Positions 1-63,469 of a DNA stretch of 64,000 bases are shown piece by piece (position 1 is the stretch's first letter; the number at the start of each line of letters is the position of its first letter). The position numbers were made by a program, and so were the translations under genes. The DNA lies in NCBI GenBank assembly GCA_905178155.1, contig CAJINV010000014.1, forward strand, positions 1,167,858 to 1,231,857, read 5' to 3'. The notes under the pieces were generated by a model. The model was given only the letters and a program-made list of their open reading frames with translations, did not search any database and was not told the origin of the DNA. This stretch comes from Amoebophrya sp. A120 (taxonomy: Eukaryota > Protista > Dinoflagellata).

Positions 1-2988
1 AACGACAGTTCCATATCCTTCTCCCCCTGCTACTGCGCTCCGGAGTGGGCCAACTTTCTGATTGAGGACGGCGACTTTTTGAAAGTGGGGCACCAACTGG
101 ACGTGTGGAGCGTGGGCGTGTCGCTCTGTGAGCTGATCACCCTCGACGCGGTGTTAAAACCGAAGTACGTCTCGATTTACAGAAACACGGGCTCCCACAG
201 AAAAGCCGGGTTTCTGTTTCTCGAGTGGCTCGCCAACGGAAAGGAGGGGCTGGCACTGGATCAATCGGTACTGTATTGAATCAAAACGCTGACCACCACC
301 AGATATATCTTTCTGTAGCTCCTAGTCAAGTTAAAAACAAAAACTTTTTTGTTTGTACAACACTGCAAAAAGCAAAAGTTTTTGAGCACAACGACTTGAT
401 TTTCGTGTGCTACAACTATACCTCTCGTCCGCCACAGATTTCGAAATTCGACCCCGAGTTTACGGATATGGTGCTGACCCGCATGCTGAATAAGAACCCC
501 ATGGCCCGCGTCTCCCTGTATCCCAGAGAAGAAAGCAGGCAGGTCATATTTGTATATGCAAGAATAAACACACCGAATCAGAAAAATCTGTCTTGGGCGG
601 CCCCGTAGCATGCTGTTTAGGATATGTCTTTGTTTGTTTGTTTTTGCATAACAAATATGACCTGCCTTTTTTTTTCTGTGGGATACCCTGGCCGACATGC
701 TGAATCATAACTACGTGAAGGACTGCATCGTGCCCGGCCTGGATACGACGATCGACAAGAAGCAGGAGCACCTGGGCGACAAGGAAAAGGTGAAAAAGCA
801 CCGGTTGGAGCGCTTGGAGGTGAAGGAGACCGACCAGCCACCGCTGATCAAGGGCGTCTTGTGGAAACTGAACTCGGACGGGGACAAGGAAAACGTGGAG
901 CACTGGCTGCGACGGGACGTGTGGCTCGACTGCAAGGGCAACCTGTGTATGCATTGCAAATATGTCTGGGTCTGGAAGGCTGTAACTTGTGATGCTACCT
1001 GTACCTTTGCACTCTACATAAGATCTGTATTGCATGAAAAGCAAATAAAGAGGTGCGCTTTTTGCTACGCGGGGAGAGAATTTCTCATGCGGTACGAGCA
1101 TCAAGGAGCCCTCGCAGAATCTCTGATGCTAGGGCATGCATTACAGACATCAGTGGTCATGCAAAATATGCATGACAATCCTGGCACTTTTCCAGACCCA
1201 GACATTTTTGCACTTTGTACTGTGCTACTACTCCCAGAAAAAGAACAAGCGGCTGGTGATCCTGGACGTGAAGCACCTGGCCACCGCGAAACTGAGCAAG
1301 ACCGGGGAGAAGTCGGTCGACAGTCTGAAATGCGCGTTGCCGCACGTCATCTGCGTCGACTTCGTTTTGGAAGAGTCCGAACTGTCCGACGAAACCAAAA
1401 ACATATTGAAAGGAAAAAATTCCCCTCCCCACATTGAAAAGGTATGTTTCCGAAAATCTGTGTTGCTGATTTGAGGCCACAAATCACATTTGTCTTGCAA
1501 GATGGCAACGCCACAGGTTCCGCCGCATTTTGCAGGCGGTTCGTCATGCTGTTGGGCCTACAGCGCAGACGCTTGTCATGCTAAGCGCCTAGGCCAAAGC
1601 CTCTCTACCCAGGCTTGATATGGGCGCGCAGTCCTCTCCAGCAAGACAAATTTGATTTGTGTACACAGATCCAGCATCAGAAATTCCGTTTTGATATGGG
1701 GCGGGGGGATTTTTCCTTTCGATAAAACGCGCACGAAACCCAGTACTACGCGGCCGAGAGTCACGAGGAGTTGAAAAAGTGGTGCAAGGCGTATAACCTG
1801 CTCAGGTGTTACAATCTCAAACGTTACAATAGAGTCTGGAACTTGTGAAGCAAGAAGTGCATTATCTGGCCAACTCTCATAGGATTGCGCATGACAAGTT
1901 CTGGAGTCCCAATCCGCACTACGATCTGGCGAAATTTGTATTGCAAAAAGTGGAATGCTGTCCGAGTCTGTCATGCTCATCATGCAATATAAGACCAAGA
2001 CTCTATTGAAAAGTTTGAGATTGTAACGTTTGAGCAGGTCATAAAGCGCTCGAGAACGTGATCCAGAACCCGGACAAGTTTGACGTCACCGACGGGCTGG
2101 CTGGAAATCAGAAGGTGCACGTGTCGGCTATGGCCCGCTCAGGTGTTACAATCTCATCAAGTCGGTTCTTACCATAGAGTCTGGAATAAATCTGTGATGC
2201 AAGAAGAAGTGCATGAAGATCTAGTTGTAGCCAGGTTTCACAGGATTGCGCATGACAAGTTCTGGAGTTCCAAATCGCGCCAGAATCTCCTTGAGAAATT
2301 TGTATTGCAGAGAGCGGAAGAACTCGTCTCTGCGAGTCTGTCGTGCTCATCATGCAGGACAAATTCCAAACTCTATCGTTGTAACGCTATAAGATTGTAA
2401 CACCTGAGCGAGTTATATCGGCCAGCATGGTAGAGGAGTTCCGGGAACTGCGGAAAATGCGGAACCGAAGAGAAAAGATCGATAACCACCCGCAGTACCA
2501 ACCAGTTTTTGAGAAGGAGTTGTGGAAACTGAATTCGGACGGTACCTGAATTTTTCAGGCTAAGGTTTGTGATGTCAACACTGATTGTCAGATTGCATTG
2601 GCTGTTGTTTTCTTATCCGGTTTCCACTCTGTGTTGATAATTCATTTTCACTTCGATCACAGGTGACGCGCTCCAGGAGACCGACTGGACCTTCCGAAAG
2701 ATGTGGCTCGCAAAGAACGGCGCGCTGTGCTATTTCAGCAAGAAGGAAAACAAGGAGCTGATGTACTACCGCCCGGAGGACATCCGGCAGGTAACCTACC
2801 GAAAGTTGAAGTACCCCCAGGAGTGCTGCCGACCGCACGCGTTTGAGCTGGCCCTGAAAACCAGCGGGGATAAGGAGCTGGAATTCGCCCCCGGAGTGTT
2901 CGCGGCAGAGGAGGAGAGCGTGATGGCGATCATCTTGGGGTGCATCGAAAAGTACCAGAAAATCAAAAACTCCGCAACCAGCAGCTGA
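1..2988 (+). CDS. Ser/Thr protein kinase (C-terminal part of catalytic domain) followed by two PH-like domains; 5' end lies outside the window
   Basis: Exons 1-267, 438-518, 691-947, 1225-1402, 1729-1791, 2049-2128, 2423-2541, 2663-2988 total 1371 nt in one open frame. Kinase motifs SPCYCAPEW and LDVWSVGVSLCEL; duplicated PH-like segments LWKLNSDG..W.R..WL...G.LCY. GT-AG introns 268-437 and 2542-2662, plus five TIR introns. Confidence 0.88.
519..685. mobile_element. TIR introner (non-canonical intron), singleton family A
   Basis: Ends tatcccagagaa...ttctgtgggata, inner arms ggcaggtcatatttgt/acaaatatgacctgcc. DR ccctg at 514-518 and 686-690. Removing 172 nt gives ARVSL|ADMLNH. Confidence 0.92.
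948..1219. mobile_element. TIR introner, family B (orientation 2)
   Basis: TIR tgcaaatatgtctgggtctggaa / ttccagacccagacatttttgca. DR ctgtg at 943-947 and 1220-1224. Removal gives KGNLC|YYSQKK. Confidence 0.93.
1404..1724. mobile_element. TIR introner, family C
   Basis: TIR tattgaaaggaaaaa..cccc / gggg..tttttcctttcgata. DR aaaca/aaacg. Homologous along its length to 61821-62148. Removal gives DETKN|AHETQYYAA. Confidence 0.9.
1792..2043. mobile_element. TIR introner, family D
   Basis: TIR tataacctgctcaggtgttacaatctcaaac / gtttgagattgtaacgtttgagcaggtcata. DR aggcg/aagcg. Removal gives KKWCKA|LENVIQ. Confidence 0.93.
2129..2417. mobile_element. TIR introner, family D
   Basis: TIR tatggcccgctcaggtgttacaatct / agattgtaacacctgagcgagttata. 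DR tcggc at 2124-2128 and 2418-2422. Removal gives KVHVSA|SMVEEF. Confidence 0.93.
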
Positions 2989-4143: not shown

Positions 4144-6546
4144 ATGTGTCCGAACCTCACGCCCGCCAGTGCCAGCTCCTCCTCGACCGGAGGCTCGCCC
4201 TCGGCGTCTGCAGCAAAGCCACTGTCACCACCTGAACCAACCGAGATCTTCTGCCACTTACCACTTCCAAATGGGACTTTTTACACCCGAAAAGTCAACA
4301 TAATCGATTACGGTATGACGTTTGCGATGGTAAAAAGACACTTCCTGCAGGATGCGCAGATTGCCCACCCGGAGATTCTGGGTAGCAGTCAAAAATGGCA
4401 GTTTTTCACCGACCAAAATTTCTGCATTCCAGACGTGAACCCGATTGGGATGTTCTGCCCCTTACCACTTGTGGAAAACGGCAACAGTAATACAACACGA
4501 CGGGGTATCCAATGCAAATGATGTGCCTGGGTCTGGAAGACGCCCGACGCTTTTCAGGCGGTTTGCGCATGTGCGCGAAGGGCGGGATACATAGCACGGA
4601 AAGCATGGCAAGTTCTTTTCTGCGGGGGCTTCTCCATGCCTTGTCTGCATAAGAAAACTTCCGTCCCCGCCTGGAGACAAAAATTGCGCATCTTTTTTTA
4701 CTGACTGTGTATACAGCACAGAAGATTTTTCGTCCTTTCAGAATCCGCATTTGAAGTTTGCTTTCTTCCAGAGGGCAGTTCCTGGCTCGCCTGGGCAGTG
4801 CCCAAGAAGCTTGCTCCACATTGCGTTCTTCCAGACCCAGACATGTTTGCAATGCATACAGGGTAAAAAGATCGAGGAAGACGAGAAACGGTTTGCGATA
4901 TGAGAGTACACAACTAGTACCCCAGGTTCTCAATTCTCATGCAAAACAGTAACTCCACACTTTCCCTCGTGGTCCTGTCACTACTATGCATGATAGGTCC
5001 ATCTTGCAGCCCAAACAGCATCACAACCCTGGGAAAACTTTATCTTGCAAAACCAGGGGGAGTCGTGAGGTTGTGCACTCTCATACAAGAAGCACGAGTA
5101 CTACAAAATTGCGGAAACAGCACCTGACTTTCACGACGATTTTTTTCTGAAGCCAGCGACCGAGAACAGCGAAAACTCCTTGTCGAAGGGGAATGAACTG
5201 TCCTACTACTACGCCCACGGCACAAAGGCGGACAGTAGCAGCAGCCAAAATAGTACAACGGCGCGGGCGCCGCTTGAGCTATCGCAGACAGCGTCGAAGG
5301 GAACAATATGCTCTGCAAAAGTTGTATCATAGTCGTACTAATTGCATTCGTGCAGGACAAATCCTGTTTCATAGCCAAATCAGCGTTAGGAATTCCATTT
5401 TTCCTCCTGGAAAAGTTTGTGATGCGATTTATAGATACTTACTAGAACGATACTTTTTTTGCAATCCATAAACAAGTGCGACGCACAACAAAAGGCAAAG
5501 TCCGTTCGGAACCAACATCGAATTGTACGAGACAATCACAAAGTATAGATGGTTTGTCGTTATGTGTTGAGCTCCTTTGATTTGTCATGCGGAGCTGCGT
5601 TTTACCTTTACAATTACATGCAGATACAGACCTCGTTTTGATGTTTTTGGTCTTGATATGCAGAACGCGATCGCAAAAATGACCGCATTGCATCAAACAT
5701 GCAGGTACTCGTTCGAAGATCACAACAACACGACGGTGAAAGTGTTCGTTCCGCTCGACAACGTGGGCAAACTGGACGCGAGCAAGGTCGAATCGAGGTT
5801 TGGCGAAAGGTATCATAAGGACATAGATACTCATACTCTTGTTTGTTTTCGGCGCATAAGAGTTTAGTGAGGACGCATTAGTAGGCTGGAAAGAACGAAA
5901 ACGAGAAGCAAGAGCGTCTTTAGTGCCTTTTCTCCTTGTTATGTGGCGTTGTATCATTGTGACTTTAGAATCCGCCACCCCAGGTCCTTCGAGCTCCTTG
6001 TCCACGGTTACCAGGGAAAGAATTGGCGACTCGGGTGCGCAAAGACGCACGAATTCATCAACGTGGAGAAGTCACGACACGCGATCCGGAACAACAAAGT
6101 CACGCTCTATTTGCACAAAGCGTATCCACTGCACATATCGATCTGGGTCTGGAGGAAGGCAGATGTAATCGAATCCGTCATGATCCTGCATTAGCATTTT
6201 GATTTTTGTTTTTCTGACCTACAAGAGGGCTTTATGCAGCAAGAGCAACAAGCAGAGCATATCCATATGCATAACTAAAAACAAGTTACGCAGGGGCCTT
6301 TCCTTGCTTGCTAACGGGAATGAAAAGAACAAGTGCCGCTCCTCCCCGAGAAACAAGCGCACTTATGTTGCTTAGGAAGCCTCATTTTCTTGTTTCGGTG
6401 CTACAGAACCAGAAGCAGCATCACTATCACAAGTTTGCATCCTTCGAGGCCCAGATGCCATGCTTGCAATGCATAGAGTGAACGACGGCGCGATCTGGTT
6501 TGACTTGTTTAAGAAGAAAGCCATTGGGGATGATGAGAAGCCATGA
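4144..6546 (+). CDS. CS (p23/SGT1/CacyBP-like) domain co-chaperone-like protein, about 329 aa
   Basis: Exons 4144-4505, 4864-4898, 5091-5306, 5476-5542, 5705-5809, 5984-6122, 6481-6546 total 990 nt in frame. Contains SYYYAH and ITKYSFED..TVKVFVPL..V....VESRFGERSFELLVHGYQGKNWRL...KVTLYLHK...WFDLFKKK, which resembles the calcyclin-binding-protein CS domain. GT-AG introns 5543-5704 and 5810-5983, plus four TIR introns. Confidence 0.82.
4506..4858. mobile_element. TIR introner, family B (orientation 1), diverged
   Basis: tatccaatgcaaatgatgtgcctgggtctggaag ... cttccagacccagacatgtttgcaatgcata. DR cgggg/caggg. Removing 358 nt gives TTRRG|KKIEED. Confidence 0.87.
4899..5085. mobile_element. TIR introner, singleton
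   Basis: TIR tatgagagtacacaac / gttgtgcactctcata. DR tgcga/caaga (diverged). Removing 192 nt deletes a TGA and gives KRFA|KHEYYKIA. Confidence 0.83.
5307..5470. mobile_element. TIR introner, family E
   Basis: tatgctctgcaaaagttgtatc ... gatactttttttgcaatccata. Perfect DR aacaa at 5302-5306 and 5471-5475. Removal gives SKGT|SATHNK. Confidence 0.87.
6123..6475. mobile_element. TIR introner, family B (orientation 1), strongly diverged
   Basis: tatccactgcacatatcgatctgggtctggagg ... ccttcgaggcccagatgccatgcttgcaatgcata. DR aagcg/gagtg. Removal gives LYLHKA|NDGAIWFDLFKKK. Confidence 0.8.
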
Positions 6547-7790: not shown

Positions 7791-10700
7791 ATGGCCTCTC
7801 GAGGTCGTTCCACCGTTGCGTCATCTTCCAGCGGCGCCGCTTCATCTGCTTCTGGTCCTAACATGACCAGGCGCCCGACAATCGAGGAGACAAATCGCGA
7901 CTCCAGGACTTCAACCTCGTCCCCAGGTGCAGCAGATACGCCGGCTGGACAGACAGAAACTACAATTTCGGGTGCGGGTGGCTCTGCAACAGAACAGCAA
8001 ATGCGGAGCTCCAGTACAGTTTTTAACCAAGAAGTCCAAGAACCATCCTCGAGCATCCGGGCGACCCGGCGGTCCACCCGGTCCATCCGATTCATCGAAG
8101 ATCCGGTGCGAGACGAGATCGCGGACCAGGACAAGAAGGCGTTCTACGACGTGGAAAAAATGATCATGAACGACGTGCACCTGCACAACGACAAGGAGCA
8201 CTACATTGTCCCGCCGGTCAGGTGTTTCGAGCCGCAGGTCACCCGCGTGAAGGTGCTGTTCCCGCTGGACCTCGGCGCCGATGAGCTGACCACCCAGCAG
8301 GACATCCAGCGAACCGGGTTGGTGGTCGACAACCAGCACCCGAGGGGGAAAAAACAGGTGAAAATTTGTTGGGACACGGACAACAAGGATGAATTCGAGG
8401 AGATCGCGGAGGAACTCGACGAGAGTTACGCGCAGCACGTAATGGAGGACCAATTTGACCTCGGGGAGAAGTCGAAACGGCGGAAGAAACTGCTGCCGGC
8501 GAAGGCCGACAGCTGGGAAAAGGTGGAGAACTTGCAGATCATCCCGCGGGTGTCCTACCGCGCGCACCACTACGAGGGCCGGTTCGACGTGGATGCAAAC
8601 GTGAAGGACATGAAGGCGAAGTTCTACGACAAAGCGCACGGCCAAAAAGTCTCCGCCCACGCGGACGCGATTCAACTGGTGCCGGAACGGGTGTCGCAGT
8701 TCGACCAGCACGAGGTGGCGCAGGACGGGTTTTATCGGTACTACGATAAGAACGGGCAGTTTCGCGACGACGCGCTCTTCGCGTCCAGCACCTTCGGCCA
8801 GGCGGGGAAGTCCGCGGAGGGCCCGGGCGGACCACTGTCCTTGGACGGGGGGCTGACGGATTGGCTGCAGGGCCCGACCTTGATCAAAAACACGGTTTTT
8901 CAGGACCCCTATTCCACGCATTCCCGGTACTACGGGGCCACGTACGTGGGGAAACAAAAGCGCTTTAAAAAGTCGGTCACGGGAACCGCAGACGCCCTGA
9001 GACAGAGCAAGAGCGAACTTGCCGCGGCAGGCAGAGGGGTCGTGGACAACAGCGACGAAGAAACTTCAGATCTTCCTCAACAGCCGATTGACTACGAGGA
9101 CGACCCGCCGGTGCTGCCGAAATCCCACCCCTTCCACCCGAAGACGGTGGAGAAATTCAACAAGAAGTTCTTCAAGGACGTCCCGCTACCCGGCCCCATC
9201 ACCGCGGAACTCGAGGCAATTCCGGATCGCGACCCCAAGCGCAAGACGAAGTCGGTCATGGAATCGGCCGGGGGAGCGCTGGGTAGTGTAGGGGGAGATT
9301 TGCAGGTGGAGGATTACGTCAGTTCCGAAGAGGAGCGAGAGAAAGAACGACGGAAGCAATTGTTACAGGGGAAAAACCGGAGTAAAACCAGAACCACAGG
9401 TACAACTACACCAGGTGCCGCAATGCCGCCCACCGTGGACGACTTGATCAATCCCGGGCCTTTGCTGGAAAGGAAATCGGAGAAATTTCAGCGCGAGGAG
9501 CAATATCCTGTGCAAAAGTATCGTGCTCGTATTGCAATCATGCATTACAAATTTTTTTCTTATACGAAAATCCGCATTACAAATTTTATTTCGCATGCCG
9601 AGGAAATGCATTTAGACGAGTGCGATACTTTTGCAATGCATAAGCAAGAGAAGCGGACATCATCATCTTCGCAGCAACAACTGCACGAAACCCTGTCCGA
9701 TGTGCCGACGGATGAATTCGAGGAGGCGCTGTACCGCGGTGCGCCGAAGACCGTAGACGTACTAGACCCCAGGGACTGGCTGCGGTCGGACCAGGACAAG
9801 ACCAAGGTGGAGATGCGGGGGAACCCGGTGGTCTCGTATGTGGAGGAGCATTTTGAAATGCCGTATCAACTGCAAAAATGTCTGGGTCTGGAAGAATGCC
9901 AGACTTGCCATGCAGGTTTTCCATGACCCATGAGGTCTGGTATGTAGGACATAGCATGACAGATTCTGTGTTAGTTCGACTTCTATCATGCCTATCCTGA
10001 ATGAGAAACTGCCTCTCGATTAGGTCAAAAGTGGGCAGCTTTTGGTAATCATGCAACACAGATTTTCACATGATTCAGATTTAGCATGACAAGTTCCTTT
10101 GTTCCAGACCCAGGAGACACTTTTGCATTTGATATGCCGGACGGCAAGTTGATGAACAGTTTGCTGCCGGATGTGCCCGACGGCAGCGAGCGCTCCCCCG
10201 AGGAGGGCGCAAAGCTCGCATGGAAACTGCGAGAGCAGGCGATCAAAGGTGCCTACATGGAAAAGAAACTGCCGACAGAGAAACACGAGTACGTGTTGGT
10301 TTATGGGACCGCGGCCGGGGGAACTGAGGACAGTGAGGTGGTCGACGGCTACAAGTGGGGCAAAGAGTTCTACGCACCCTGGGTGCCGTACCCGGACGAG
10401 GTCGTAGCAAGTGACTCGGATGAGGAAAGACTAGGGACTGCTGGGGCTGCTGGTGCATCCACGTCGGCGGCGCAAAGTAGAACTTCGAAGAAGAAGCTCA
10501 AGAAGAAAACGCTGCCGCACTTTTCGCCCGAAGAGCTTATTGAGATGCAAGCGTGTCAGGAAATTTACGGTGTAAATTACGACCCTTCGAAAGTGCCGGA
10601 GGTTCTTTTGTCGGACAAAGCTAGAACAAGTGACCCTGCGAAGGACGTGCAACAAGAGCGAAGAAGTAGAGGAGAGGATGAACAAGCAAATAACGCTACT

Positions 10701-13700
10701 GCAGTTTCGAACGCGCAAGTAGAACCTCCACAGGACCAGGAGAGTATGCAAGACCTATCAAGTTCTACCCCTGAACAAGGAGATCCCCGTAAAACGCAAA
10801 CGGAAACCACTACTGAGACTGTTACCATCGCGACTAGGACCGAAGAGGTTGGCAGCTCTACTAGAAGTGGCACAACTTCAGCCACCTCCCAGCAGAAAGG
10901 AAAGGCAAGAGGCGGGCATAAAACAAAAAACCAGCCCGACTACGCAGATTTCGTGGACGGACAGATGCACTACAGTCGGTACGCTTACGAGGATATGCTA
11001 AAGAAGTTAGAGGAGGACGGCTTCACAGTTTTAAACAAGGCCACGCCGGTGATGGAGCTGCCGGTGAGATCCAACCTCTTCGAAGACTACCATGCGTTCG
11101 AACTGAAGAAGAAGCGGGCAACCGTGGTGGAGAACGCGAACAAAAAGTCGGTCGCGGTCCGGTTTTCCGGGGCGGAACAACAACAAGAACAAACCGGTGA
11201 AATGAACTCGACACGAGCGTCGAAGCAGGAAAGCTCCTTAGAACATCAAGGAGCGAATGGTGGCTCTTTCGACATGGCAACGACCGCGCTTGCGGAGAAA
11301 GCGAGGGCGGAAACGGAGAATGTCAAAGATCCGAAATCGTTTCTGAAGCGGGAGACGGACCACCAAGCAACCGAAGAGTTTCGCCGGTCGCTGACCGACG
11401 AGCACAGCTACGAGGCGTTTATGCACGTGGGGCACAAGCTGACCGGCTTCTTCGATGCCGAGGGAGACTACCACGCACAGCAGTCGAACTTGCACGACAT
11501 TCGGGTGGCCCGGGTGAAGCGGTGCGCTCCTTACAAGGGGTACAGCGAAACGAAATTAGACGGGTCCAGCCCATGGCTGCCGCCGGCGCACCGTTGGGAG
11601 GTGAGCGTGTTGGGGAATAGAGTCTGGCGCCACGAGCCGGTGGTCGACAACCGGCCGATGGTGGGGGTCAACGCGCGATTGGAAAAGGGGGAAAAGGAGT
11701 TCACGAGCAGCTACGACCCGGTGGCGGAGGGGTATGACCCGTATAGCGCAGCGAAAAATAGCTACGGCAAGAAAAAGCACTTCCCGCCGAACGACATTTT
11801 GAAACGGTACTACGCGAACACGAATCCGAAGATGAACATTTACGCGTACATTGGCAACGGGCACGTGGTCGACGCAAAGGACTTACGGGACGAGTTTCAC
11901 CACGTGTCCGACATTTACCAGTCGGAAGACCACATTGTCGACTACCCGGGATTGTTCACGAGCAAGGAACAGCAGATCAAACACCTCTACAAGCAAAAGT
12001 ACGACGAGAAGCACCCCATCAAGGACACGGCCGCCTCGTCGGCCCACCGGGACCCCATGTTCTGGTTTTACGAAGTGGCGCAGGAAAAGAACCCGGAGGA
12101 CGAGAAGGCCCAGGACGGGCGGGGCACAACCTTGAAGAAGGGGACGAGCTACTTGCGGCGCGTGTACCGCGACCTCGACTTCCCCCCGGCCAAGGAGGCG
12201 GAGGACAAGAAGCACCCAGTCTACGACTTGTTGCACTTCCTCTTAAACGGCGGCGAGACGGCGGAGGAAAAGGAGAAGCGGGAGCACAAAAAGCAGCACG
12301 AGAAGGAGCAATTGCAGCAATTCGCGAAGAAAATCGACTACACGCGGGAAGCGGGGATTGGCGGGACAGCTGCTCCGACGCTGGCCCGGCAGCACGAAAC
12401 GCCGATCGAGAAGAATGCAGAGCACATGGAAAGGTTCTTCGAGAAAAACGCGAAATACAAGTACGGGGAATTAAATTACGGCGACCTGGAGAAGGAGAGG
12501 AAACGGAGAATAGCGGATAGGGTGAACAACGATGCTGCTCTCTACCACGTGAACCGGGCGAACTTCTCGGAGATGCTGGAAATGAAGGCGTCGGTCGTGA
12601 AATCCCGGGTGGATCAGAGAGAGTCTGCGATCGCGGAGGCCGAAAGGCAGTTGGGCGTCGCGGGTCTGGAGAACAATAAAGTGCCTGTTATCCCGTTGCT
12701 CGAGATTCCGCTGCCCGATTACGAGAAAACCTTGAAGCCGCACTTCGACGACCGTATCCCGCTGCCGGAACAGATTAAGGCGAAGGAGCAGTACAAAAAT
12801 GTCTACCACGCGAAACGACGGCACCCCGCGAATCCGGAACACTTCGAGAACGAGGTGGTCGTGCTGGAGAAGCACGGCTACAACCCGGAGTACGCTTTGC
12901 AACCGCTGTTACCCCCGGTGTCGAAAGAGGAATTGGATGCCGCCTGTATCCGTGCGGGCGGTCGGTTGCAGGACGGGGACAGAATCCGGGACTTGGAGTT
13001 GCTGAAGCAGGAGGAAGATATTAAGAAGTTGCTCGCGTCTTTGGGGGAAGAAGAAGTGGACTACGGATTCAAAAACAAGAACGAAAAGATCCACTGGAAC
13101 ATATCCAGAGCAAAAACGTCCCCACCCCAGAGTCGAGATGGGGATCTCGCAACAGAAATCGAGAAGTGTTGGGAGTCAAGCATGACAAGTTCCTGTCTGT
13201 ATTGTAGTGCAGTTTAGCAAGTACAGCCGCAACACAAATCCATCTACTCATCCTGTTTACAGCATGACAAAGCCCAAAACACTATTGGAGATGCCTCTCG
13301 TGGGGATTCGCATTACAACTCTTCCTGTAACTGCAAATCTGCATGACAACTATTGTGTGGGGATGTTTTTACTCAGGATAGAACATTGTGGACCCGAGGG
13401 TGGAACTCCAACCGCACGAGTACCCGATTAAGGTTTTCGGTCCGGGTATCAAATGCAAAAATGTCTGGGTCTGGAAGATTGCCAGATTAAGATTTGTAAT
13501 GCAGTTTTTTCATGATCCAGGAAGACTGGAATGCAGGACCTAGCATGACAGATTCTGCGCGATCTCTCTCATGCCTATCCTGCATGAGAAACTGCCTCTC
13601 GATTAGGTCAAAAGTGTACAACTTTTGGCAAGCATGCAACACAGTTTTTTGCCTGCTTCGGATTTAGCATGACAAGTTGCATTTTTCCAGACCCAGACAT

Positions 13701-13834
13701 TTTTGCATTTCATACCGGGGCTGGACCCCTTCTTGGGCGAAGTGGTGTCACATCTGCCGAAGCGGAAGAGCGACGGACAGGGCCCGCCAAGCATGTGGGA
13801 CCGGATTCACGACATGATCGGGCTGGGGTCGTGA
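7791..13834 (+). CDS. Large hypothetical protein (about 1688 aa), charged and low-complexity
   Basis: ORFs 7791-9926 and 10086-13217 join, and extend to TGA at 13832-13834, after removing four TIR elements plus one DR each (144, 276, 284 and 273 nt); 5067 nt in frame. No domain recognised. Confidence 0.85.
9504..9642. mobile_element. TIR introner, family E (in frame and stop-free, hidden inside the ORF)
   Basis: TIR tgcaaaagtatcgtgctcgt / acgagtgcgatacttttgca. DR agcaa at 9499-9503 and 9643-9647. AT-rich 144-nt block within a GC3-rich exon. Confidence 0.9.
9864..10134. mobile_element. TIR introner, family B (orientation 1)
   Basis: tatcaactgcaaaaatgtctgggtctggaa ... ttccagacccaggagacacttttgcatttgata. 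DR tgccg at 9859-9863 and 10135-10139. Removal gives HFEMP|DGKLM. Confidence 0.95.
13102..13380. mobile_element. TIR introner, family F (279 bp)
   Basis: TIR tatccagagcaaaaacgtccccac / gtggggatgtttttactcaggata. DR gaaca at 13097-13101 and 13381-13385. Removal gives IHWN|IVDPRV. Confidence 0.93.
13447..13714. mobile_element. TIR introner, family B (orientation 1)
   Basis: tatcaaatgcaaaaatgtctgggtctggaa ... ttccagacccagacatttttgcatttcata. DR ccggg at 13442-13446 and 13715-13719. Removal gives VFGPG|LDPFLG. Confidence 0.95.
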
Positions 13835-14547: not shown

Positions 14548-17500
14548 ATGAAACGTCTCGGCCGCCTTTTGTCCGTCTCCGCTTTTTCCGCCTTCGTGCA
14601 GGGCGATCCACCGACCCCCGAATTGATCTGGCGCAAACTCAGTGACACGGTAGACGTGACCCTGGTCCCAAACGCAGCAGACGTCACTGGCGTCGAGCTC
14701 TCGTCTAAAAAAGCCACGCTAAGGTTCATTCGAGATGTTGGAGCTGTGCCCTCGTCGCGGGGTGAAGGTGAAGCGGACAAAGCCGTGGACGACGGACCCT
14801 CCCAGTCTAGCTCTTCGGCCAAGCAAAGTGCGCAGCAGCATCCTGCAGCGCAGCATACGGAGGATCAAAAGCCACTACCTTCGGGAGGACGACATGGGGA
14901 ACAGCAAATGGCAGGACTGCAACATGCCGAAATGCTGCGACAGGATGCGAACAAAGCTGCCTCTACGGCTTCTGCCGCCATCGTCACGGAGCAGGACTTG
15001 AACCGAATCAAGACTTCCGACTACAACGAGGATAAGATGGTGGTGAGCCTCCTCGGGGAGGAAAATGCCCAGTCCGAGTCGGATACAGAGCTGGACCTCT
15101 TAGACCTGGAGCTGCAAAACGCCCGGCGCTCCTCTCCTTCCTCTAGCTTTTTGCAAGTGACCAAACAGGACAACTTGAACCTTGGTGAAAACATCGATCT
15201 GCGAAGGAATCTCGCGAGCGCGTTTGAATCGTTAGAAAGAGTGGTGGTCGACAGCGGGAACTACTTGATGAGCAGTAGCGGGGGCACTTTCACTAAAACT
15301 CTGTCGGCTGCTGCCCCTAGCACAAGTAAGAAACAGAAGCAAGTCGTCGCGCACCTGCAACACGAGAAGATTTTACAAGGAACTGCGAAGATGATGAAAG
15401 GTGCTGCCCCTACAGCACCCGCAAGTGTGAAGAGTTTGGCAGGAAACAAAAAGTTTATGACGAAGCAAGTCACCGCCAAGACGAAGACCACCCCTGCGTC
15501 TTCTGCCGACAAGAAATTGGCTGACGGACGACCAGCGCCGGCGGAAAAAAAGCACGACCCGACCACAGGAAAACACGAGCAAAAGTTGTTCTCGACTTTG
15601 CGACAAGAGTACGAAGAGCTGGCTGAGGATAAATTTCTCAATTACCGCAACATCAAGAAAATTATCGTCGAGCGCATTCCGGACAAATCCAACGCGCTGC
15701 TGATCATGGCATTGAAGGAACAGGGGTCAACAATATCTTCATCCCCATCCGAGGACAAGAATTCCTCGCAGGAGCTGCACGAGCAGCAGGATCGTGACGC
15801 GACGACACAGATGAAAATCACGATCGCGCCAGTGCAAAAGTGGAACACCGGCGCCAGCCTCGCATCTCCGATTTTGCCCAAGGCGAGTCTGTTGCGCTCG
15901 CATGTGCACTTCTTTTTCCCGGTTGTGGACGAGAGTGAAGTTGTTGATTCTGCTGGGAGCGAGATGAACGGGGATCATGGCCAAGGAGGAGTAGAAGAAA
16001 CATCAACCGCAAAGCCGAATGCAGCTGCAAAGAACATATCTAGCGGGACGAGAACAACTGGGAACCCCTTCCGGCGGAAGAAGCATCCAAAGTTCTTGCA
16101 CGGGACGTCGACTACTAAAAGACCTGCTGGCCGCTTGGAGAACAACCCCGGTGAGAAGAAGCCGAAAATCTCCGTTCCCGATTTCGCCGCGAAACCGCTC
16201 GCGAGTATCATGGACGAGTACTTTGCCGCGGCGAAGAAAGCGACGGAAGAACACGCGGTGCGTCTTGTGGTTGATGCTTCTGAGCAACTGCAATCCAGTG
16301 CTGCTGCTGGCGGAACTCCAGCGTTTTCGACGACTGCAACGACTTCCAAAACTCTTTCATCTTCATTCCAGCAAAAGAGTGCGATCCAAGAGACCGCGAC
16401 CACAGCTGGAGGTGCAGAGCAAGTTCTTGGGGCTGTTGATTGTGGAGCAGCATCGTCAGACGACATTGAGAAATCTGTCGAGAAGGAACCTTCGCAGCTG
16501 GAAAAGGACGCGATGGAGTGGACTTTGATGGAAGCAAACGAAAATCACAAGTCCGGCGCAGACAAGTGGACTAATTTGAAGAACAAATTTGCAGATCGGA
16601 AAATGATGACAAGTTCAGCTTCTTCAGATAATAAGCAACAAACTTCGACTTCCAGCACAAGAACATCAGTGGCTACGACGGGACAGCAAGGCAAGTCCGG
16701 GATGACAAACAAGGCCCAACTACATCAACTCCGACACGAGACGGAATTGACAAAATTTCTACGCCAAGACGTGAAGAAGGCACAGGAGGCGGCAATTCCG
16801 GTGCGAAGTGATTTAGAAGTAGCCTCCGGCTCTTCCGTTGTTGTTCCCTCACATCAGGCAGGTGAACTTCCACGACCGGCAGCGAGCAACTTTCACTTGC
16901 TGAAAGCTGAGATCGAGCAACGGGAGCAAATTGACAACTCCGCGACCGAGAACGCACTCAAGCAGTACGAAGCGGACCGGGAGAAGGAAAAGGAGCGGTC
17001 GGTGGTTATCATATGTAAAAACACCCCCACACCATACACAAGATGAGAAGTCTGCAACACAAATTCCAAAGTTTTGGGAGTTCTGCATGACAAATCTAGC
17101 CCCATAGTGCAACCCTGTTTAGCTAGTTAAACAGCATCACAGATGTAGCACATCGTGCCGATTGGAGCATGACAAATTTAGAAACATGACTAAAAACCGC
17201 CTTCCATGGGGCTCCGCATGAGAAGCATTTTTACACTGCAGATTTGCATGACGACTCTGGGGCGCGGACGTTTTCACATAGGATAGTGGTGGAAAAAACC
17301 GATTCGCAAAGAGCGAAAGCAGCTTCCTCCGCTGGGGGCGTTTTTGACACAGCGGAGGTCGAGAAGAGCTTGAATTTGAAGCCGCGAAACTTGGAAACCG
17401 ATGTGAAAGAGCAGTTTGAGGAGCAGACAGCCGGACCGTCATCAAACGCCGGAGAATATTCCCCAGGTGGACCTCCTGTGGGAGTCATTAACCACCTTGT

Positions 17501-30579: not shown

Positions 30580-31463
30580 CGTTACAGTTGCACGAACTTG
30601 GTGTTTTCAGCCGAGTTATTTTTTAGTGGCGCAGAGTGAATCATTTACATTTTAGTTTCTGTGCCCACCTCCTAATAAATCCCCTGAGGCGTCATCACAA
30701 CGGACCCCCCAGTATTGAACTCAACAAAGACGTCGAAGATTTTTGTTTTTCTTTTGCATACAAGAGTATAAATTGGTAAATTGATTTCTATTCACGCTGC
30801 ACCCATTTTTACTTTGTTGCATTTATTTTCCAGTTTTTCTTTTTGACGGTTCCCCCCGTCTAAATTCATTTTTTGAAAAAAACCACTTTTCTTCGACCAG
30901 AATCCGCAGCACGACTTGCACCATGCAGAAGAAATTGTTGAAGGTATACCTCATTAAAGAGGCCGTCACCGGCCAAGAGCGCGCGTTGGCCGTCGACAGC
31001 GAGAAGCTGCGGCCTGCCGTCGAGGAAACGGCGGAAGCGGGAGGATCTTCCACATCATCTTTTGTGCAAGAAAAGACGCAGGAACGGCGACGCCGTCTGC
31101 GCGGGAACTGCTGCCCTGATCCTCCAGGTACCGTCCCTAACACCCGTTCCATTCTGCCACCGAACCTCGAGGGGGTGCGGGAAAACGCAGGTCCGTATGG
31201 AAGGCGAATCAGCAGTGCTAAAAATCTACTTTTTCGTAGTTGGGTGTAAGTAGTTAATAAGCCCGGTAGACGCAGCCACAGATCGATGACAAGGTGCTGT
31301 TGCTCTGGTGTCAAAACAGGTACACAGGCATGTCGTGGTATAAGAATGTCGATACTTAGTCAGAAATAAGCGCAAATCATCTTCATCACAATGACAAAAA
31401 ATGCCGACGAGTGTAGAAGTTATGCATGATTTCATGTTTCCAGATCTTCATTAACGGGCAGAT

Positions 31464-41773: not shown

Positions 41774-42482
41774 ATGGACGTCACCAAGGAGCGCATTTAC
41801 TGCGCCGAGCAAATCAAGGTCCCAGATGACCTGCCTAACATCATGAAGGGTATAGAACGAAATTTCTTTTGCAGCTTTCTAGTCGAAAAACGTGATGAAA
41901 GTGCATGATTCTAACTACCTTTACTTTCATCTGACAGTCGTGGCAATATTACTCTTCTTAAATGTTGATCTTCAACAAAAACACAGACTACACCAAGGAG
42001 CTGATCAAGAGCAACCCGGTGGGCTATGAGTCGAGAATGAGACGTTACCTGCGTACAGTTGTTTCACATTGATTTTCATGCATGCTTGTATGACCGAACC
42101 CGAACCCGATGATAAAAGATGCCGAGGTTGATGTTCTTGCTCTGCCAGGACCAGGAGCAGGAGCAGGACCACACTACAATACTTATCTATGAGCAAGACC
42201 AAGACAAATGTGAAACTACAGTTGGTAAAGCTTTTTTCTCCCGCATACGAAGGGGGAGACCGGAGACGTTGCCAAGAAGAAGATCTACGAGTGGAGTCTT
42301 GAGTATAGTTTTAAACACGATTGATAAAAATTCTTCGCACGAGCGACGATGTTGGACTTCTGATGTCGGCATAATCTTCGCAAGCTGGACAATTTTTGTT
42401 ATGCGTAAACGCAAAACTTACGAATCCAATCCTGTCTAGGTACTTCAAGAAGAAGCTCGGTGAGAAGCCTATCGTGCCGTAA
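41774..42482 (+). CDS. Small RIIa (PKA dimerisation/docking)-domain protein, ropporin/radial-spoke-protein-11-like, 66 aa
   Basis: Four exons 41774-41849, 41987-42018, 42253-42302, 42440-42482 with GT-AG introns give MDVTKERIYCAEQIKVPDDLPNIMKDYTKELIKSNPGETGDVAKKKIYEWSLEYFKKKLGEKPIVP*. Matches the family pattern I(Y/F)CAEQI.(I/V)P..L..I.K.YTK..I...P......S..YF. Absent from the ORF track. Confidence 0.88.
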
Positions 42483-44760: not shown

Positions 44761-45062
44761 TAGTGCCATGGTGCTGTGTCGAACTCCTGCTGATGCTACA
44801 AATGGATTGAGGGAGGTTCACCACTGACGTCCATTTTCTGTGCCTAGTTATTCCGGCCATCCGTGAGCGAGCAGTAGATCGATGCACCACCGGGACCTGG
44901 TGAGCGAAGAACGTAAGCGACCGACAGGCTGAGTGAACAGCTATCCATTTCCTTTGCATGATCAGTTAAGTTGTCTTGCGTCTGCTTCGCGTGTTGGTCT
45001 CTCTGTACAAAAGAACGACCAAAAGCACTACAATCAAAAAACGTGTTGCGCGATCATCTCCA

Positions 45063-47641
45063 ATGCCGCTCTTTTCACCATCGTCCACGGTTCCAGCGTC
45101 ACGACGCACCCCGCCACTTGTCCTCCACTTCGCCGTTTCATTTTTCACGACCGCTTTTATTCCGCGAACCGTCTACAGTCGCGCGACCGCTACTTCTTCC
45201 CGGAGCGGCGGCGCTGCTACCGCTCTCAACAGTCACAACTTTCCGCTGGAGGTGGGTGTCGACAATGCGCCAACAAGACCAACTTCAAGTGCCTATGAAG
45301 ATGCAACCACCGCAGCAGTGGATAGCAGCAATTTTGAGAGTAGCCAGAACAGTCTGCAGCCCGGGGACCTGTTCGATAACATCATTCCCCCGGAAGAGGA
45401 TAGAGGAGTGCAACAGAACAGGCCTTCCACAGCCAATGCTGGGAGACAAGATGAGGAAATAAACCGCCCAGAAGTTCTTGCCGCTAGGGACGAGTTTGTG
45501 CAAAGGAGACAGTCTTTCCCTGACGTCGCGACACCGGGAGCTGCAACCGGTGGCGCTCCTTCGTCAACTTCTTCTGACAGATTAGGCGGAGCACCGGCTG
45601 CACGATCATTGCAGGAGTTGCAGGATGAAGAGGTGGTGCACAATGGGCGAAAAGAATTGGAAGACAGCTCGCCGAGAGCCAGTCTGGTCCAGAAAAGCCA
45701 GTCGAGCAGGTACTTCAGCGTCAGCGAAGAGCGGACTAATAATGAAGCGCAGCGGAATGGTGAAAAGCTTCTCCAAGAGCAGCAGCAGCAGTTGTTACAG
45801 CAAGAGCAGATGAAGATGCAGTACAACCAGGGTCAGGCCCCCGCCGGTGGTTCAGCGCCGGGCGCCACTTTCAACCCCCTACCCCCGGGCCCGCTTGCCG
45901 AAGACCCGGACACGGCGATTACGAAGTTTGTCATCGCGTCGAGCGCGAGCGGGGGCCAGATTGTGTACATCAAACTCGGATCCCACAACCCCCAGCTGCC
46001 CCCCAAGCCGCTGATCGAATCTGCACTGCAAAAACCGGTGGCAATTGCGGTGGACAATCCGAATCAGTTGCTCTACGTAGCTACGAGTTGCAAAGATATC
46101 CCACTAACGTAAATCTGAATGTTGGCATTTACAATTTTTTTTCGAGTAGACAGAGACAACTCTGTGATGCTAATTTACCGAAGGCGCGACGTCTTTGTCA
46201 TGCGTTACTGGAAGTCAATTACTACGAGTGCGATACTTTTGCAAAGGATAGTCGCAGACGAAAACGCGATGAAAGTGTTGCGCTACCAGCTGAAGATCCA
46301 GGAGAACGGAGAGAAGTTATCCGCTATCAAATGTAAAAATGTCTGGGTCTGGAAGGTTGGAACTTGTCATGGTAAATCTCAATCATGCAAAAATCTGTGT
46401 TGCATGAGTGCCAAAAGCTGCCCACTTTTGACCAAGTTGGAAGGGAGTTTCTCATGCAGGATAGGCATGGCAGAGACCTCACAGAGTCTGTCATGCCGAG
46501 TCCCGCATTCCAGACCTCAAGGGTCATGGAAAATCTGCATGACAAATCTGGCATCCTTCCAGACCCAGACATTTTTACAGTTGATATCCGCGGTGGCGAA
46601 GGGCACGGTGGCGCTGAACTTTGCCGCCACGGGGGTCAGTGTGGACTCGTTTGGGAACGTGTACTTCGTCGATGGAGCGACCGGTAGTTGTTACTTTGTG
46701 ATGCGTAATATTATGGTCGTGTGCATGCACTGATTATGGTTATTCCAATGTGTAAGTGTAACCACGAGATCGACGCTCAACCTTTTTCAGGCCGTATCTA
46801 CCGGGCCGACCCAGAGCACACGACAAACCCGGTCCTCCTCTACGACGCGACGCGGCTTCCGGAGCTCAGCGGGCCGAGTCACATTTACGTGGACAATTTT
46901 CATGTTTACTGGGCAAATGGCAGCCTCGGAACGAGCTCAGGTACAGTTTTTTGTATTGTGCTGGAAAGCTACGGATTAGATATAGATACTTCCACTCTAC
47001 CGAGGAAGAGGAAGCCGCCGTGCTCTGTGATTCACAGAAGGCGCCTTTCCAAAAATATGGTAGACAAGTTTTACAACTTCTTGAACTTGAAATAATCTCG
47101 AGCAACTTTTAATCCAGGTACCATTGTTCGCGCTCCGCTGAAGCGGCCGCAGTTCAAGGAGGATGGTAGCAAACCCCCGGGGTTGAAAGTCTTGACCAAA
47201 AACGCGGAATCCGCAAATTCCGTGTGTGCGGCGGGCGACACGGTGTTTTACACCTCGACCAACAACTTTTTCCGCGCCAGCAAAATGTCCACGGAGACCT
47301 CGCCCGTGACCACCGTGGACAAAACCCTGGACGCCGTGAGCGGGCAGTGTGCGTGGGAGAAAACCGGGTCGGTAATCGTGATCGACCAGAACTCAGTGTT
47401 CCGCTATGCCGGGGCACTGTCAGACAAGTACCCGGCCAACTCTGCTGCGGCGCTGGCGGGCTCGGTGCCGAAAGCCAGGTCGCTTCTGTTCCACCTCACC
47501 GGGGGCTCGGGGGTGGCGGTATTTGTCGATCCCGGGTCCGTTGGAAAGATTCAGCACCGGAGCGTCGTCGGCGACTTTTTTTCCACGCTTTTAGCGTTTG
47601 TATTGGGCGCAGGGGTAGTAGGAATGATTGCTGCGGTGTGA
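45063..47641 (+). CDS. Membrane-anchored NHL/YWTD-like beta-propeller protein (about 617 aa)
   Basis: Exons 45063-46081, 46256-46324, 46592-46683, 46791-46940, 47118-47641 total 1854 nt in frame. Blade motifs KPVAIAVDNPNQLLYVAD, GVSVDSFGNVYFVD, GPSHIYVDNFHVYWAN. C-terminal TM segment FFSTLLAFVLGAGVVGMIAAV. Confidence 0.85.
46082..46250. mobile_element. TIR introner, family E
   Basis: tacgagttgcaaagatatc ... acgagtgcgatacttttgcaaaggata. DR gtagc/gtcgc. Removal restores the blade motif LLYVA|DEN. Confidence 0.88.
46325..46586. mobile_element. TIR introner, family B (orientation 2)
   Basis: tatcaaatgtaaaaatgtctgggtctggaagg ... ccttccagacccagacatttttacagttgata. DR tccgc at 46320-46324 and 46587-46591. 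Interior aligns to the reverse complement of 9864-10134. Confidence 0.95.
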
Positions 47642-58140: not shown

Positions 58141-58661
58141 TTATCGGAGGGCCGTACGCTGCGTATATTATCCATCGTTAATTCATTGCCCGCCGTCTAT
58201 TCATGAAGTCTCTCTGTCTTCGGCCGTAGGAGCTGCCGCAAAATGAGCCTGGCAGCGGCAGAGGACGGCCTGTATGGTGGTGCCAGCACTTCCCAAACTG
58301 TCTTGCACTTGTACGACGAAGCCTGGGACCCGCTTTCTTATGGTCGTCGGGGCCACCAATTCAAGACGGCTTGTTCCGTATCTCGTTCGAGTGTGCGTGG
58401 TTTGCCACTTGGATCGCACGCGTCGCTTGCTGTTCTAGCTCACGAAACTAGTACTGTCGGCGTCCATGATGTAAGATTCTGCGTTTTTTTTTTCTGCCAC
58501 GCTGCCGCGAGTGACGGCAGACCTGCCGAGGTGGCTATGCTACTGTCAACGCTTGCGAAAGTGTGTTTCTCTTGCTCGTCCATCTTCAAACTTGACCGCC
58601 GCATATTCCCTTGCTGGTCCACGACGTAGTGCTAGGTACAACTCGAAATCAGAATGTGAAG

Positions 58662-61357: not shown

Positions 61358-63469
61358 ATGTCTGCAACCGTAGTCTTGACTGCTGCGCAGCTTCTGTGTG
61401 CTTCCAAGTGCGTAGAGCATTTGGTACCAATCGCCAGCAACACCCTGCTAATCGACAGCCTATCCGCGGAGAGGAAAACATTTTGGAAGGAGGGGAAGGA
61501 GCACGATTTTTTCGCGACAGGGACCGTTTCAAGTGGCACGACGGGCGTATCAAGCAGCACCACGCCGAGTCTTTTGCAGTATTGTTTGGACATTGTGGGC
61601 GGCGCTGGGAGCAGTACACCCGCAAACGCTCTAACAGCGTCCTCGCCCCTATCCAGAACGAGCAACTGGTACTCTTTTACTACAGGTGCAACTACCCCGA
61701 CATCAAATACCGCCCAGCTATTAAACGAACCACAAATCGACAGTGCCTGGACCTGTTGCAAGCTGTGGCAGAACTACCTCGGCTGTCGTGCGGCGCGTTG
61801 CGGGATCCAAGCGGACTCCTTATCAAAAGGAAAACCCCCCCCTCCGCCTCCCCATATCGAAAAGATATGTTTCCGATAATTTGTGTTGCTGATTTCAGAA
61901 CACAAATCACGTCTGTCTTGCAAGAAGACAAGTGCAGAGGCTTCCGCGCCATTATGGAAGCGATTTGGCATGCTGTTGGGCCTAGGAGACAGCCGGTCGC
62001 AATGCTAAACAACTAGACCCTTGCTCCCCTACCTACGCTGCGGATCTGGCTGCGATGCCGTATTGCAAGACAGTGCGCATCTGTGTACGAAAATCCAGCA
62101 TCAGAAACTTCGTCTCGATATGGGGAGGGGGGATTTTTCCTCACAATACTCCTTCTCGGATCTCTACTTCGATAAGTGTTTCCCGAGCGAAACCGCGCAA
62201 CAGCGGGCGGTGATCCAGGCGCTCAAGCCGGAGATGAAACCGAGGTGGCACCTGATGCCGACGATATTTTTGACCGGCAGTTTCGTCTTAGAGTTTAACA
62301 CGTTGGAGGAAAAAAACGCGTTTCTGTTGCTCTCGTCAGGAGGTGCAAGTAGTAGTACTTCTCCGGGAACTACAAGCAGTAGTGCCAGCAACACAATAAA
62401 TTCCGGTCACTTTGTTGCCATAAATCAGCAGTTCGCGTCCTACATCCGCGAAAGATTTTGGAACAAGGACCAGTTCCGGAGGACGAGCGTTTTGGGAAAA
62501 CAATCCCAAACCACGCGGCACGCCATTTTCGGGTACGAAACCCTGGATTTTTGGGTCCAGGTGAAGCCGAGAAACACCCTCTCGGGCGTGACGCCCGCGA
62601 CGCTGGTGAGCGCAGAGCCATTGGCGCGCACTCCGTTCGACGACGAGGAAAGGGAGTACGCGCTGCGGCCGCACTACAAACGGATCGACGTCACGGAGAT
62701 GCTACAGCGGCAGACGGCGTTGCTTTTGCACACGGTAGAATTAGTAATTTTCTTTTTCTCTTGCAGTCGTGTTGTTCTTTCGGAATTCTGGTTCTAGGTA
62801 CCACCTAGTCCTCCAACATCATGTTGGACACAGTCGTAATGAGAAAGAGAATGGGCAACATGAACATGCTGGTTGGTGGCTTCAATCGACGTATAAACCT
62901 ATGAAAAAACCAGGCTTTTCGACTTGCTCAGCAAAACGGACGACGTCATTAAAAGTGCCGAGAAGCAGAAAAAAGCCATCGTGAAGCAACTGGAGGCGGT
63001 TGCCGGCGCGAGCGTCGACCGCAACGGAGACGGCTGCGTGTCCACGTTTGAGGCGAAAACGTTCTGCGGTTTGATTGCGAGAAGGAGCAGTGGCGGACCG
63101 CAGCCCGGGGATGGCAGTGCCACGGCCTCGATCAACCCGACCTCGAGTTTTGTGGAAGTTATTACGGCGCAGAGGCGGAAACAGCTCGTGCAGTTGCCAT
63201 CGTGGGCAGATTGCAGGAGGAGGATCGCGTCCGCTTGCCGTGCTTGCACTGCTGCACGAGATCCTGACATGAATTCGGAAGATAGTGCGGATACTACAAC
63301 TACTGTGACGAGCGGCGTGACGAGCGTGGAGGTAACCAAAGCGTGCGAGATGCTCATCCATCGCAGCTGCAGCACGAAGGCTTTGCCGTTGCCATATGGG
63401 AGCGACTCGGGGCCGGGGGCATGCAAGCACTCGCAAGGTCGGGCGTTTTCAAGGGTGTTTGGCCTTTAG
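61358..63469 (+). CDS. Hypothetical protein with one EF-hand-like loop (about 545 aa); ends uncertain
   Basis: Exons 61358-61820, 62154-62734, 62798-62835, 62914-63469 total 1638 nt in frame. GT-AG introns 62735-62797 and 62836-62913. Motif DRNGDGCVSTFE. Confidence 0.7.
61821..62148. mobile_element. TIR introner, family C
   Basis: tatcaaaaggaaaa..cctccccatatcga / tcgatatggggaggggggatttttcctcacaata. DR ctcct at 61816-61820 and 62149-62153. Homologous to 1404-1724. Removal gives IQADS|FSDLYF. Confidence 0.93.

Follow-up and report, generated by a model that had tools for sequence, protein, structure and literature searches.

A fixed cut register for the non-GT-AG introners of Amoebophrya sp. 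A120

Introduction

The window analysed here is a 64,000-nucleotide (nt) stretch of the genome of the dinoflagellate Amoebophrya sp. A120 (assembly GCA_905178155.1, contig CAJINV010000014.1, positions 1,167,858 to 1,231,857), in which 28 inserts with TA...TA ends and inverted-repeat arms interrupt 11 genes, all on the + strand. The inserts are 139-498 nt long, with one further form, a composite intron of 666 nt. Here, we will distinguish between these inserts, which are introner elements of the kind described by Farhat et al. in 2021, and the ordinary GT-AG introns that lie in the same genes. The inserts are removed at the RNA level, and every cut that can be pinned reads exon/N-TA(T)...ATA-NNNN/exon (slashes mark the cuts), that is, the intron begins 1 nt before the element and ends 4 nt after it. 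We refer to this as the -1/+4 register.

Inserts in the window

A strict scan for 5-nt direct repeats around TA...TA ends with complementary arms returned 16 matches in the window against 0, 1, 0, 0, and 0 in five shuffles, and 14 of these were retained; the matches at 32473-32901 and 48403-48874 had the lowest arm scores and were discarded. A looser scan gave 22 matches against 0-4 in the shuffles, of which 18 were retained, the matches at 26581, 32473, 37157, and 57807 being dropped. The insert at 4899-5085 scored within the shuffle range of the looser scan, yet its removal was later confirmed by RNA. Ten further inserts came from reading by eye and from mapping the annotated protein P0001, which is labelled Amoebophrya sp. 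A120 and matches an exon query at 98% over 72% of its length. A second protein with this label, P0002, matches at 100% over 93 amino acids, and P0003 is its ortholog from strain A25.

The first-pass annotation of this DNA, made from the sequence alone, had counted about 26 such inserts in nine genes and had named 11 perfect 5-nt direct repeats; the observation is confirmed, the recount raises the totals to 28 and 11, and every one of the named repeats is present in the window. Its family counts survived in part. BLAST within the window links six members of family B (one partial) rather than seven, two of family C as claimed, and two each of D, E, and F rather than three; the other proposed members are alike at their ends only. 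Arms begin TAT-N7-AAA, with AAA absent from family C and from the insert at 4899. A search of the window against Rfam gave zero matches.

Removal has been demonstrated for 20 of the 28 inserts, by exact RNA joints (nine), by summed length (four), or via annotated proteins (seven). Reading frame is the support for the other eight, at 17007, 22385, 31196, 39871, 42025, 46082, 46325, and 61821. The inserts are as follows.

519..685 (+), introner, singleton, perfect 5-nt repeat; the -1/+4 rule gives intron 518-689; RNA joint 513/686, 172 nt, four of four runs
948..1219 (+), introner, family B, orientation opposite to 9864 and 13447; RNA joint, 277 nt
1404..1724 (+), introner, family D, repeat AAACA/AAACG, which sets the upper bound of the cut; RNA joint 1397/1724, 326 nt
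1792..2043 (+), introner, family C, G at +1, skips an AG one base before the 3' cut used; RNA joint, 257 nt
2129..2417 (+), introner, family C; RNA joint, 294 nt
4506..4858 (+), introner, family B, diverged, skips a CAG one base before the 3' cut used; RNA joint, 358 nt
4899..5085 (+), introner, repeat matching at 2 of 5 positions; RNA joint, 192 nt
5307..5470 (+), introner, E-like ends; RNA joint, 169 nt
6123..6475 (+), introner, B-like ends, repeat AAGCG/GAGTG, which sets the lower bound of the cut; RNA joint 6121/6480, 358 nt
9504..9642 (+), introner, family E; summed length with 9864, X1 contig
9864..10134 (+), introner, family B; summed length with 9504
13102..13380 (+), introner, family F; summed length with 13447
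13447..13714 (+), introner, family B, young, high-copy; summed length with 13102
17007..17285 (+), introner, family F, perfect repeat; sequence and frame
22385..22617 (+), candidate old introner; by eye, frame
25405..25575 (+), introner, repeat 3 of 5; 176-nt junction in P0002, across which P0003 (A25) aligns gap-free
31196..31464 (+), candidate old introner, whose rule-based removal brings an upstream exon with an ATG into frame with P0001; frame
31607..32272 (+), composite 666-nt non-GT-AG intron with a partial B copy (31611-31902), starts N-TAC and ends ATC-NNNN; P0001 junction (three cuts permitted, -1 included) and B homology
32429..32750 (+), old introner, C-like ends; 327-nt junction in P0001
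32900..33292 (+), old introner, repeat 1 of 5, cut possible at -1/+4 only; P0001
33380..33817 (+), old introner starting TAA, repeat 0 of 5, cut possible at -1/+4 only; P0001
33948..34147 (+), old introner, repeat 1 of 5, cut possible at -1/+4 only; P0001
34278..34775 (+), old introner, repeat 0 of 5, cut possible at -1/+4 only, G at +1, skips a CAG one base early; P0001
39871..40147 (+), candidate old introner; by eye, frame
42025..42247 (+), candidate old introner; by eye, frame
46082..46250 (+), introner, family E; sequence and frame
46325..46586 (+), introner, family B, orientation as 948; sequence and frame
61821..62148 (+), introner, family D; sequence and frame

The stretches 31611-31902 and 31989-32205 had been read by eye as separate introns, and P0001 shows the single 666-nt intron instead; its 5' part is a decayed B element and its 3' end resembles another family, so arms of different origin, as here, may still be spliced. 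An element at 58273-58605 had been predicted to be a removed introner. The prediction found no support, the P0004 annotation being a single exon that starts downstream of it, and the element was excluded from the count. It is old, has TAT...ATA ends and arms that can still be recognised, lies ahead of the point where the P0004 annotation begins, and may be an intron of the 5' untranslated region or an interruption of an unannotated first exon.

Removal at the RNA level

Transcript joints were compared over window positions 1-7300 in the assembled contigs of four RNA-like runs (X1-X4), representing two samples of one study. Because four GT-AG introns are missing from these contigs, we read them as spliced transcripts. 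Thirteen joints are common to all four runs, namely these four GT-AG introns and nine insert joints. The ordinary introns, including those found by protein-to-DNA mapping in the P0002 gene, are as follows.

268..437 (+), ordinary GT-AG intron in a transcript shared with five introners; RNA joint
2542-2662, 5543-5704, 5810-5983, further ordinary GT-AG introns; RNA joints
24340..24579 (+), ordinary GT-AG intron, P0002 gene; protein-to-DNA map
24703-24907, 25046-25303, 25640-25775, further ordinary GT-AG introns, P0002 gene; protein-to-DNA map

At every one of the nine non-GT-AG joints, in all four runs, the gap equals the element plus 5 nt exactly (lengths above). Two more pairs fit by summed length: an X1 contig lacks 420 nt across 9504 and 9864, which is (139+5)+(271+5), and 557 nt across 13102 and 13447, which is (279+5)+(268+5). 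None of the nine exact joints can be read as GT-AG, the canonical ends of U2 introns, under any slide of the junction, as the first-pass annotation had said of the copies it checked, and four ordinary GT-AG introns sit in the same transcripts. One joint can be read as AT-AC; this is a by-product of its target sequence, minor small nuclear RNAs (snRNAs) are reported absent, and we do not regard the inserts as U12 introns.

After splicing, the sequences read as open frames of 456 and 352 codons. The spliced contigs carry the whole gene depth in each of the four runs, with depth zero inside 1404-1724. One stray joint, 1817/2239, was set aside, being found in X2 only, at depth 4.7 with a 24-nt side, between the two family C copies. 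Two raw-read runs, X8 and X9, contributed 6 aligned reads and 1, respectively.

The DNA-like run X5 represents one sample, possibly the source of the assembly. Its contig covering 1-973, at single-copy depth, runs unbroken through the insert at 519, and that covering 4830-9532, also at single-copy depth, runs through those at 4899, 5307, and 6123 with no differing letters or gaps. Element depth in X5 reaches about 190,000 against about 45, a value that marks high repetition rather than copy number. The earlier proposal had left RNA splicing and DNA excision side by side. The spliced contigs place removal at the RNA level; DNA excision is disfavoured because the RNA-like contigs without inserts also lack the GT-AG introns and the DNA-like contigs keep the inserts.

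It had also been proposed that deleting the inserts rebuilds kinase, PH, CS, and NHL domains. When single exons were compared with Pfam, the kinase gave a weak match below the cut-off and PH and CS gave none; the PH, CS, and NHL names are a matter of recognition by eye.

Position of the cuts

With a perfect 5-nt repeat, the junction could lie at any of six positions; imperfect repeats set limits to it. In the transcript at 1404, the fifth base of the right copy is retained, which places the intron start at or before -1 relative to the first T of the element. At 6123, it retains the fourth base of the left copy, which places the start at or after -1. The allowed offsets of all nine RNA joints intersect at -1 only.

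This register was recorded from the RNA joints before the P0001 junctions were examined. Four of the six P0001 junctions permit one cut only, each of the form N-TA...ATA-NNNN, with neighbouring offsets giving other residues; by our own arithmetic from base frequency, this form would be expected at about 1 in 1,000 per junction. The remaining two P0001 junctions, like that of P0002, permit several cuts, -1 among them. Thus, all 16 junctions with positional data fit -1, six being informative and ten compatible.

At the four single-cut junctions, the repeats match at only 0-1 of 5 positions, and the arms are still recognisable. The cut is unchanged where the repeat has decayed; therefore, the direct repeat is dispensable for removal, and selection appears to maintain the arms. 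The earlier rule of "element plus one direct repeat" is right about the length removed, and the -1/+4 cut is the sharper statement, persisting where no repeat is left to define it. End letters are free and both orientations are spliced, the insert at 948 lying one way and those at 9864 and 13447 the other.

The fixed code N-TAT...ATA-N4 accounts for the seeming lack of a splice signature as an effect of alignment sliding and for the tolerance of thousands of exon insertions. It permits re-annotation of the genome and supplies exact coordinates for studying removal, which makes the question of mechanism testable.

Families in a second assembly

Families B-F are present in a second assembly (JACKZZ01) at 74-90% identity to the window copies. 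A pattern search with the B arms gave 145 loci, all on JACKZZ01 contigs. The reader should keep in mind that the pattern fixes TAT on one arm, and conservation of TAT in these loci is therefore partly circular. Among B elements with both arms, 124 of 132 end TA...TA, and in these 124 the duplication is a perfect 5 nt in 111, 4 nt in two, and 6 nt in none. When 300 elements were chosen by arm score alone, 223 had repeats matching at all five positions.

Orientation was assigned by a codon model, independently of RNA, with confidence for 166 of 275 elements and by locus vote for 211. The TAT-N7-AAA arm start is reproduced in the 166, and rule-based ends read GT-AG in five of them. In the 211, base use at +1, -1, -2, and exon +1 is at background. 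B copies stand at 20 sense to 17 antisense. Arm pairing is uneven at positions 4, 5, 7, and 10.

Inverted ends, a fixed duplication, both orientations, and no coding capacity are the traits of a MITE (a miniature transposable element with inverted repeats), or non-autonomous terminal-inverted-repeat transposon, and the inserts have all of them. They are, as first described, MITE-like non-GT-AG introns of the Amoebophrya type. In the 145 loci, a search with arm pairs spanning up to 3 kb found no autonomous element with a transposase, and no stretch without a stop runs beyond 118 codons in the four longest copies. Viral contigs contain no exact match to the B core. No empty-site allele was recovered, as no locus matched unique window sequence over more than 330 nt.

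Some B-family elements have perfect 5-bp duplications and a foreign interior, at L065 4024-4995 (972 nt), L040 3315-3945 (631 nt), and L039 571-1051 (481 nt). These long copies are probably nested insertions and hold no long reading frame.

Comparison with known systems

Farhat et al. report 29,850 copies of introner elements in A120, with arms of TAT, seven variable bases, and AAA (PMC7789003). The organism label, these arms, the many families, and the sharing of genes with GT-AG introns are the same here, and the legend of their Fig. S19 likewise gives 5-bp direct repeats. In A25, the arms are reported to begin TTA. The published account otherwise describes repeats of 3-5 nt, variable sites, and an unknown border, whereas we find 5 bp, a -1/+4 cut, and a repeat that is dispensable. 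Its authors argue against general mobilisation by a transposase; a 2025 study by Gozashti describes an A120 family whose ends are inverted and which has integrase-like homology (PMC12130899). A 2024 review still describes the splice motifs as highly variable (PMC11453091), and our literature search, covering few subscription journals, found no publication fixing the splice register of Amoebophrya introners. The element class is known; the register rule seems new to print.

Introners of Aureococcus, Micromonas, and Polarella are likewise described as non-autonomous DNA transposons, with inverted repeats and target duplications, that turn into introns (PMC7789003, PMC11282704, PMC12130899), though those of Aureococcus carry canonical splice motifs, unlike the elements here (GT-AG in 5/166). 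The TA...TA termini are shared with IS3EU and GingerRoot elements, which have integrase-related DDE enzymes and whose duplications are usually reported as 6 bp (PMC10045372), in contrast to the 5 bp found here.

The nonconventional introns of euglenids are also MITE-like, with paired ends, no terminal dinucleotide, and GT-AG introns alongside (PMC12501133, PMC11282704), and their fixed offsets were likewise derived from introns that cannot slide (PMC12501133). The Euglena code, given as N3-CDG...CH'G-N5-6 with a purine at exon +1 (PMC12501133), differs from N1-TAT...ATA-N4 with an unbiased exon +1; Euglena, in which circular release is reported (PMC11282704), is of an unrelated lineage. In Fritillaria borealis, transposon-derived non-GT-AG introns are again found in bulk and are described as handled by a modified U2 spliceosome (PMC13326754, PMC11282704). 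Fritillaria is reported to keep AG-AC/AT ends, U1, and a duplicated U2AF, whereas both ends are free here and U1 is reported as not found.

How the inserts might be removed

We favour removal by a loosened U2 (major) spliceosome, at a probability of about 0.5. On this proposal, a putative DDE integrase or transposase would insert the element and create the 5-bp duplication, which is itself observed. The two arms, as predicted by folding, would pair in the precursor messenger RNA and bring the ends together. Cuts at -1/+4, a step borne out by the six informative junctions and compatible with the other ten, leave four bases of the left copy and one of the right, and the original coding sequence is restored at any site and in either orientation. 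The U2/U5/U6 core would catalyse the reaction, recognising U at +2 followed by A at +3, as it does in host GTA donors; G at +1 and a final AG would no longer be needed, with the 3' site set by its distance from the stem. Insertions into NNAGG targets might first have made ordinary GT-AG introns in this register, the demand for G and AG being lost later.

Several findings are consistent with this. Of the six offsets allowed by a perfect repeat, -1 alone makes the element's T the +2 of GT, and in no other register can an element with TA ends and a 5-bp duplication yield a GT-AG intron (target NNAGG); such a register offers a route by which the first insertions could be tolerated. Host donors begin GTA in 7/8 verified GT-AG introns, and the register puts TA at +2/+3. 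U2, U4, U5, and U6 are reported in A120, where minor snRNAs are described as absent, and U1 as not found in either A120 or A25 (PMC7789003); U1 is reported in a relative with mainly GT-AG introns (PMC12005148). A preserved spliceosome core reportedly handles 95% non-GT-AG introns in Fritillaria (PMC13326754). For 14 of the 15 introns examined, folding predicts that at least 12 of the first 20 arm bases pair.

A stronger form of the proposal, to which we give slightly less than even odds, is a major spliceosome that lacks U1 and has no need of G+1 or a 3' AG, reading N-UA at the 5' side and measuring four bases from the hairpin at the 3' side, which would make each element a universal introner. 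Since 1 and 4 add up to the 5-bp duplication, an insertion at any place and in either orientation would then be a scarless intron, and tens of thousands of introns reported to have "no clear signature" would come under one rule.

A number of points weigh against the spliceosome. The second step of standard splicing depends on G+1 and the final AG, and both are free here; 56 of the 64 end combinations occur in the 166 oriented elements. Four introns that start with GT (1792, 4506, 6123, and 34278) skip an AG lying one base ahead of the cut used, though a minor form would not show in contigs; in the second assembly, GT with AG one base early occurs in 1/64 against 12/147 (p 0.115, not significant), and the comparison with AG one base late is confounded. 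GT and AG do not co-occur above chance (7/64 against 14/147, Fisher p 0.8), nor are old elements enriched for GT-AG (1/30). AG at duplication positions 3-4 is weakly raised in left copies (25/211 against 15.2 expected, p 0.015, uncorrected for eight tests) and gives p 0.14 in right copies. Predicted pairing of the terminal TAT/ATA is near zero in 4/19 removed introns and below 0.3 in two more, so the step in which the stem acts as a ruler is not uniform; the 5' site would moreover sit buried in a stem. Nor was any lariat, branch point, or splicing intermediate seen. The register itself comes from two RNA joints (one study, two samples, contigs only) and four junctions of one gene model; A120 gene models are reported to be built from transcript alignments (PMC7789003).

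The same -1/+4 register could instead be produced by a non-spliceosomal machine, in which an endonuclease that binds the duplex cuts both strands where the stem begins, the exons are joined by an RNA ligase, and the intron is freed as a circle or a linear molecule, a route proposed for the nonconventional introns of Euglena and diplonemids. The free end bases, the splicing of both orientations, and the disregard of nearby AGs all suit such a machine. So does Euglena, where introns use the same kind of code, with fixed offsets from paired triplets (PMC12501133), and are reported to be released as circles with no lariat (PMC11282704); RNase III-like or transfer RNA-like routes have been proposed (PMC12621601). 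No back-joint of the kind a full-length circle would give is among the joints listed for the RNA-like runs, although contigs would not reveal one. The separate machine would leave the match of the offset to a GT donor and to the host GTA consensus to chance (about 1 in 6) and the reported absence of U1 unexplained, and no candidate enzyme came to light, no search aimed at one having been made. We consider it a serious possibility, though distinctly short of an even chance. It is the second pathway that the first-pass annotation had inferred to run beside the spliceosome; separateness from the spliceosome goes beyond the evidence, and the register leans modestly towards the spliceosome. Either outcome matters: a spliceosome ignoring both terminal dinucleotides, or a second lineage with a Euglena-like non-spliceosomal route.

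Other explanations are much less probable. Cuts might fall at variable places about the hairpin, as Farhat et al. draw them, with the agreement here being local; the legend of their Fig. 3 calls the sites variable and the border unknown, and that of Fig. S23 places A120 inverted repeats 1-5 nt from the splice sites (PMC7789003). Only six junctions are informative and the composite intron ends ATC-NNNN, but -1 is included at all 16 and is the sole option at four, and a spread of 1-5 nt is exactly what sliding in a 5-nt repeat yields; we think this unlikely. Excision from DNA at some life stage, like that of the internal eliminated sequences of ciliates, with RNA copied from empty genes, would suit the TA termini, and the DNA evidence is one run with 15 of its 379 joints listed. 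The intact single-copy contigs across four inserts count against it, as does the loss of both TAs here, which ciliate excision is not known to produce, and we regard it as very unlikely. Short repeats beside hairpins are a known setting for template switching by reverse transcriptase, and all evidence of removal derives from complementary DNA. Such artefacts are hard to reconcile with joints having 0-1 nt of end homology (6123 and four P0001 junctions), with spliced contigs at whole gene depth, with the restored open frames, or with the gap-free alignment of the A25 ortholog across the 25405 junction, and this is the least credible of the explanations.

Other features of the window

Three exact copies of CTTTGGCTCAAGG lie at 28126-28138, 28405-28417, and 28629-28641 (0.12 expected with one mismatch allowed), two of them followed by T, giving a GT donor. 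The sequence is similar to that at the 3' end of the spliced leader of dinoflagellates. The copies are possibly a cluster of divergent spliced-leader RNA genes, for which Rfam gave no match. The spliced leader is reported to end in TCAAG (PMC7789003).

A nested palindromic block at 36640-37530 holds inverted 11-mer arrays, 5.6 units of CCTAAGTCAAA facing 14 of TAGGTTTCACT, flanked by inverted 20-21-mer arrays; it is telomere-like but internal. A 124-bp tandem repeat (3.1 units, 96%) lies at 27141-27524, and its end motif is seen by eye again near 28650 and 30540. The discarded match at 48403-48874 has a perfect 11-bp inverted repeat and a 4/5 direct repeat, enclosing what is likely to be the first coding exon of a gene resembling CD225 (Pfam CD225, E 6.7e-6, narrowly below the cut-off); the inverted repeat is probably due to chance. 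Very GC-rich intergenic blocks at 43300-44750 and 57100-58200 have no BLAST match in the window or the loci, and a 100-N assembly gap at 51496-51595 falls in an intron of a long gene.

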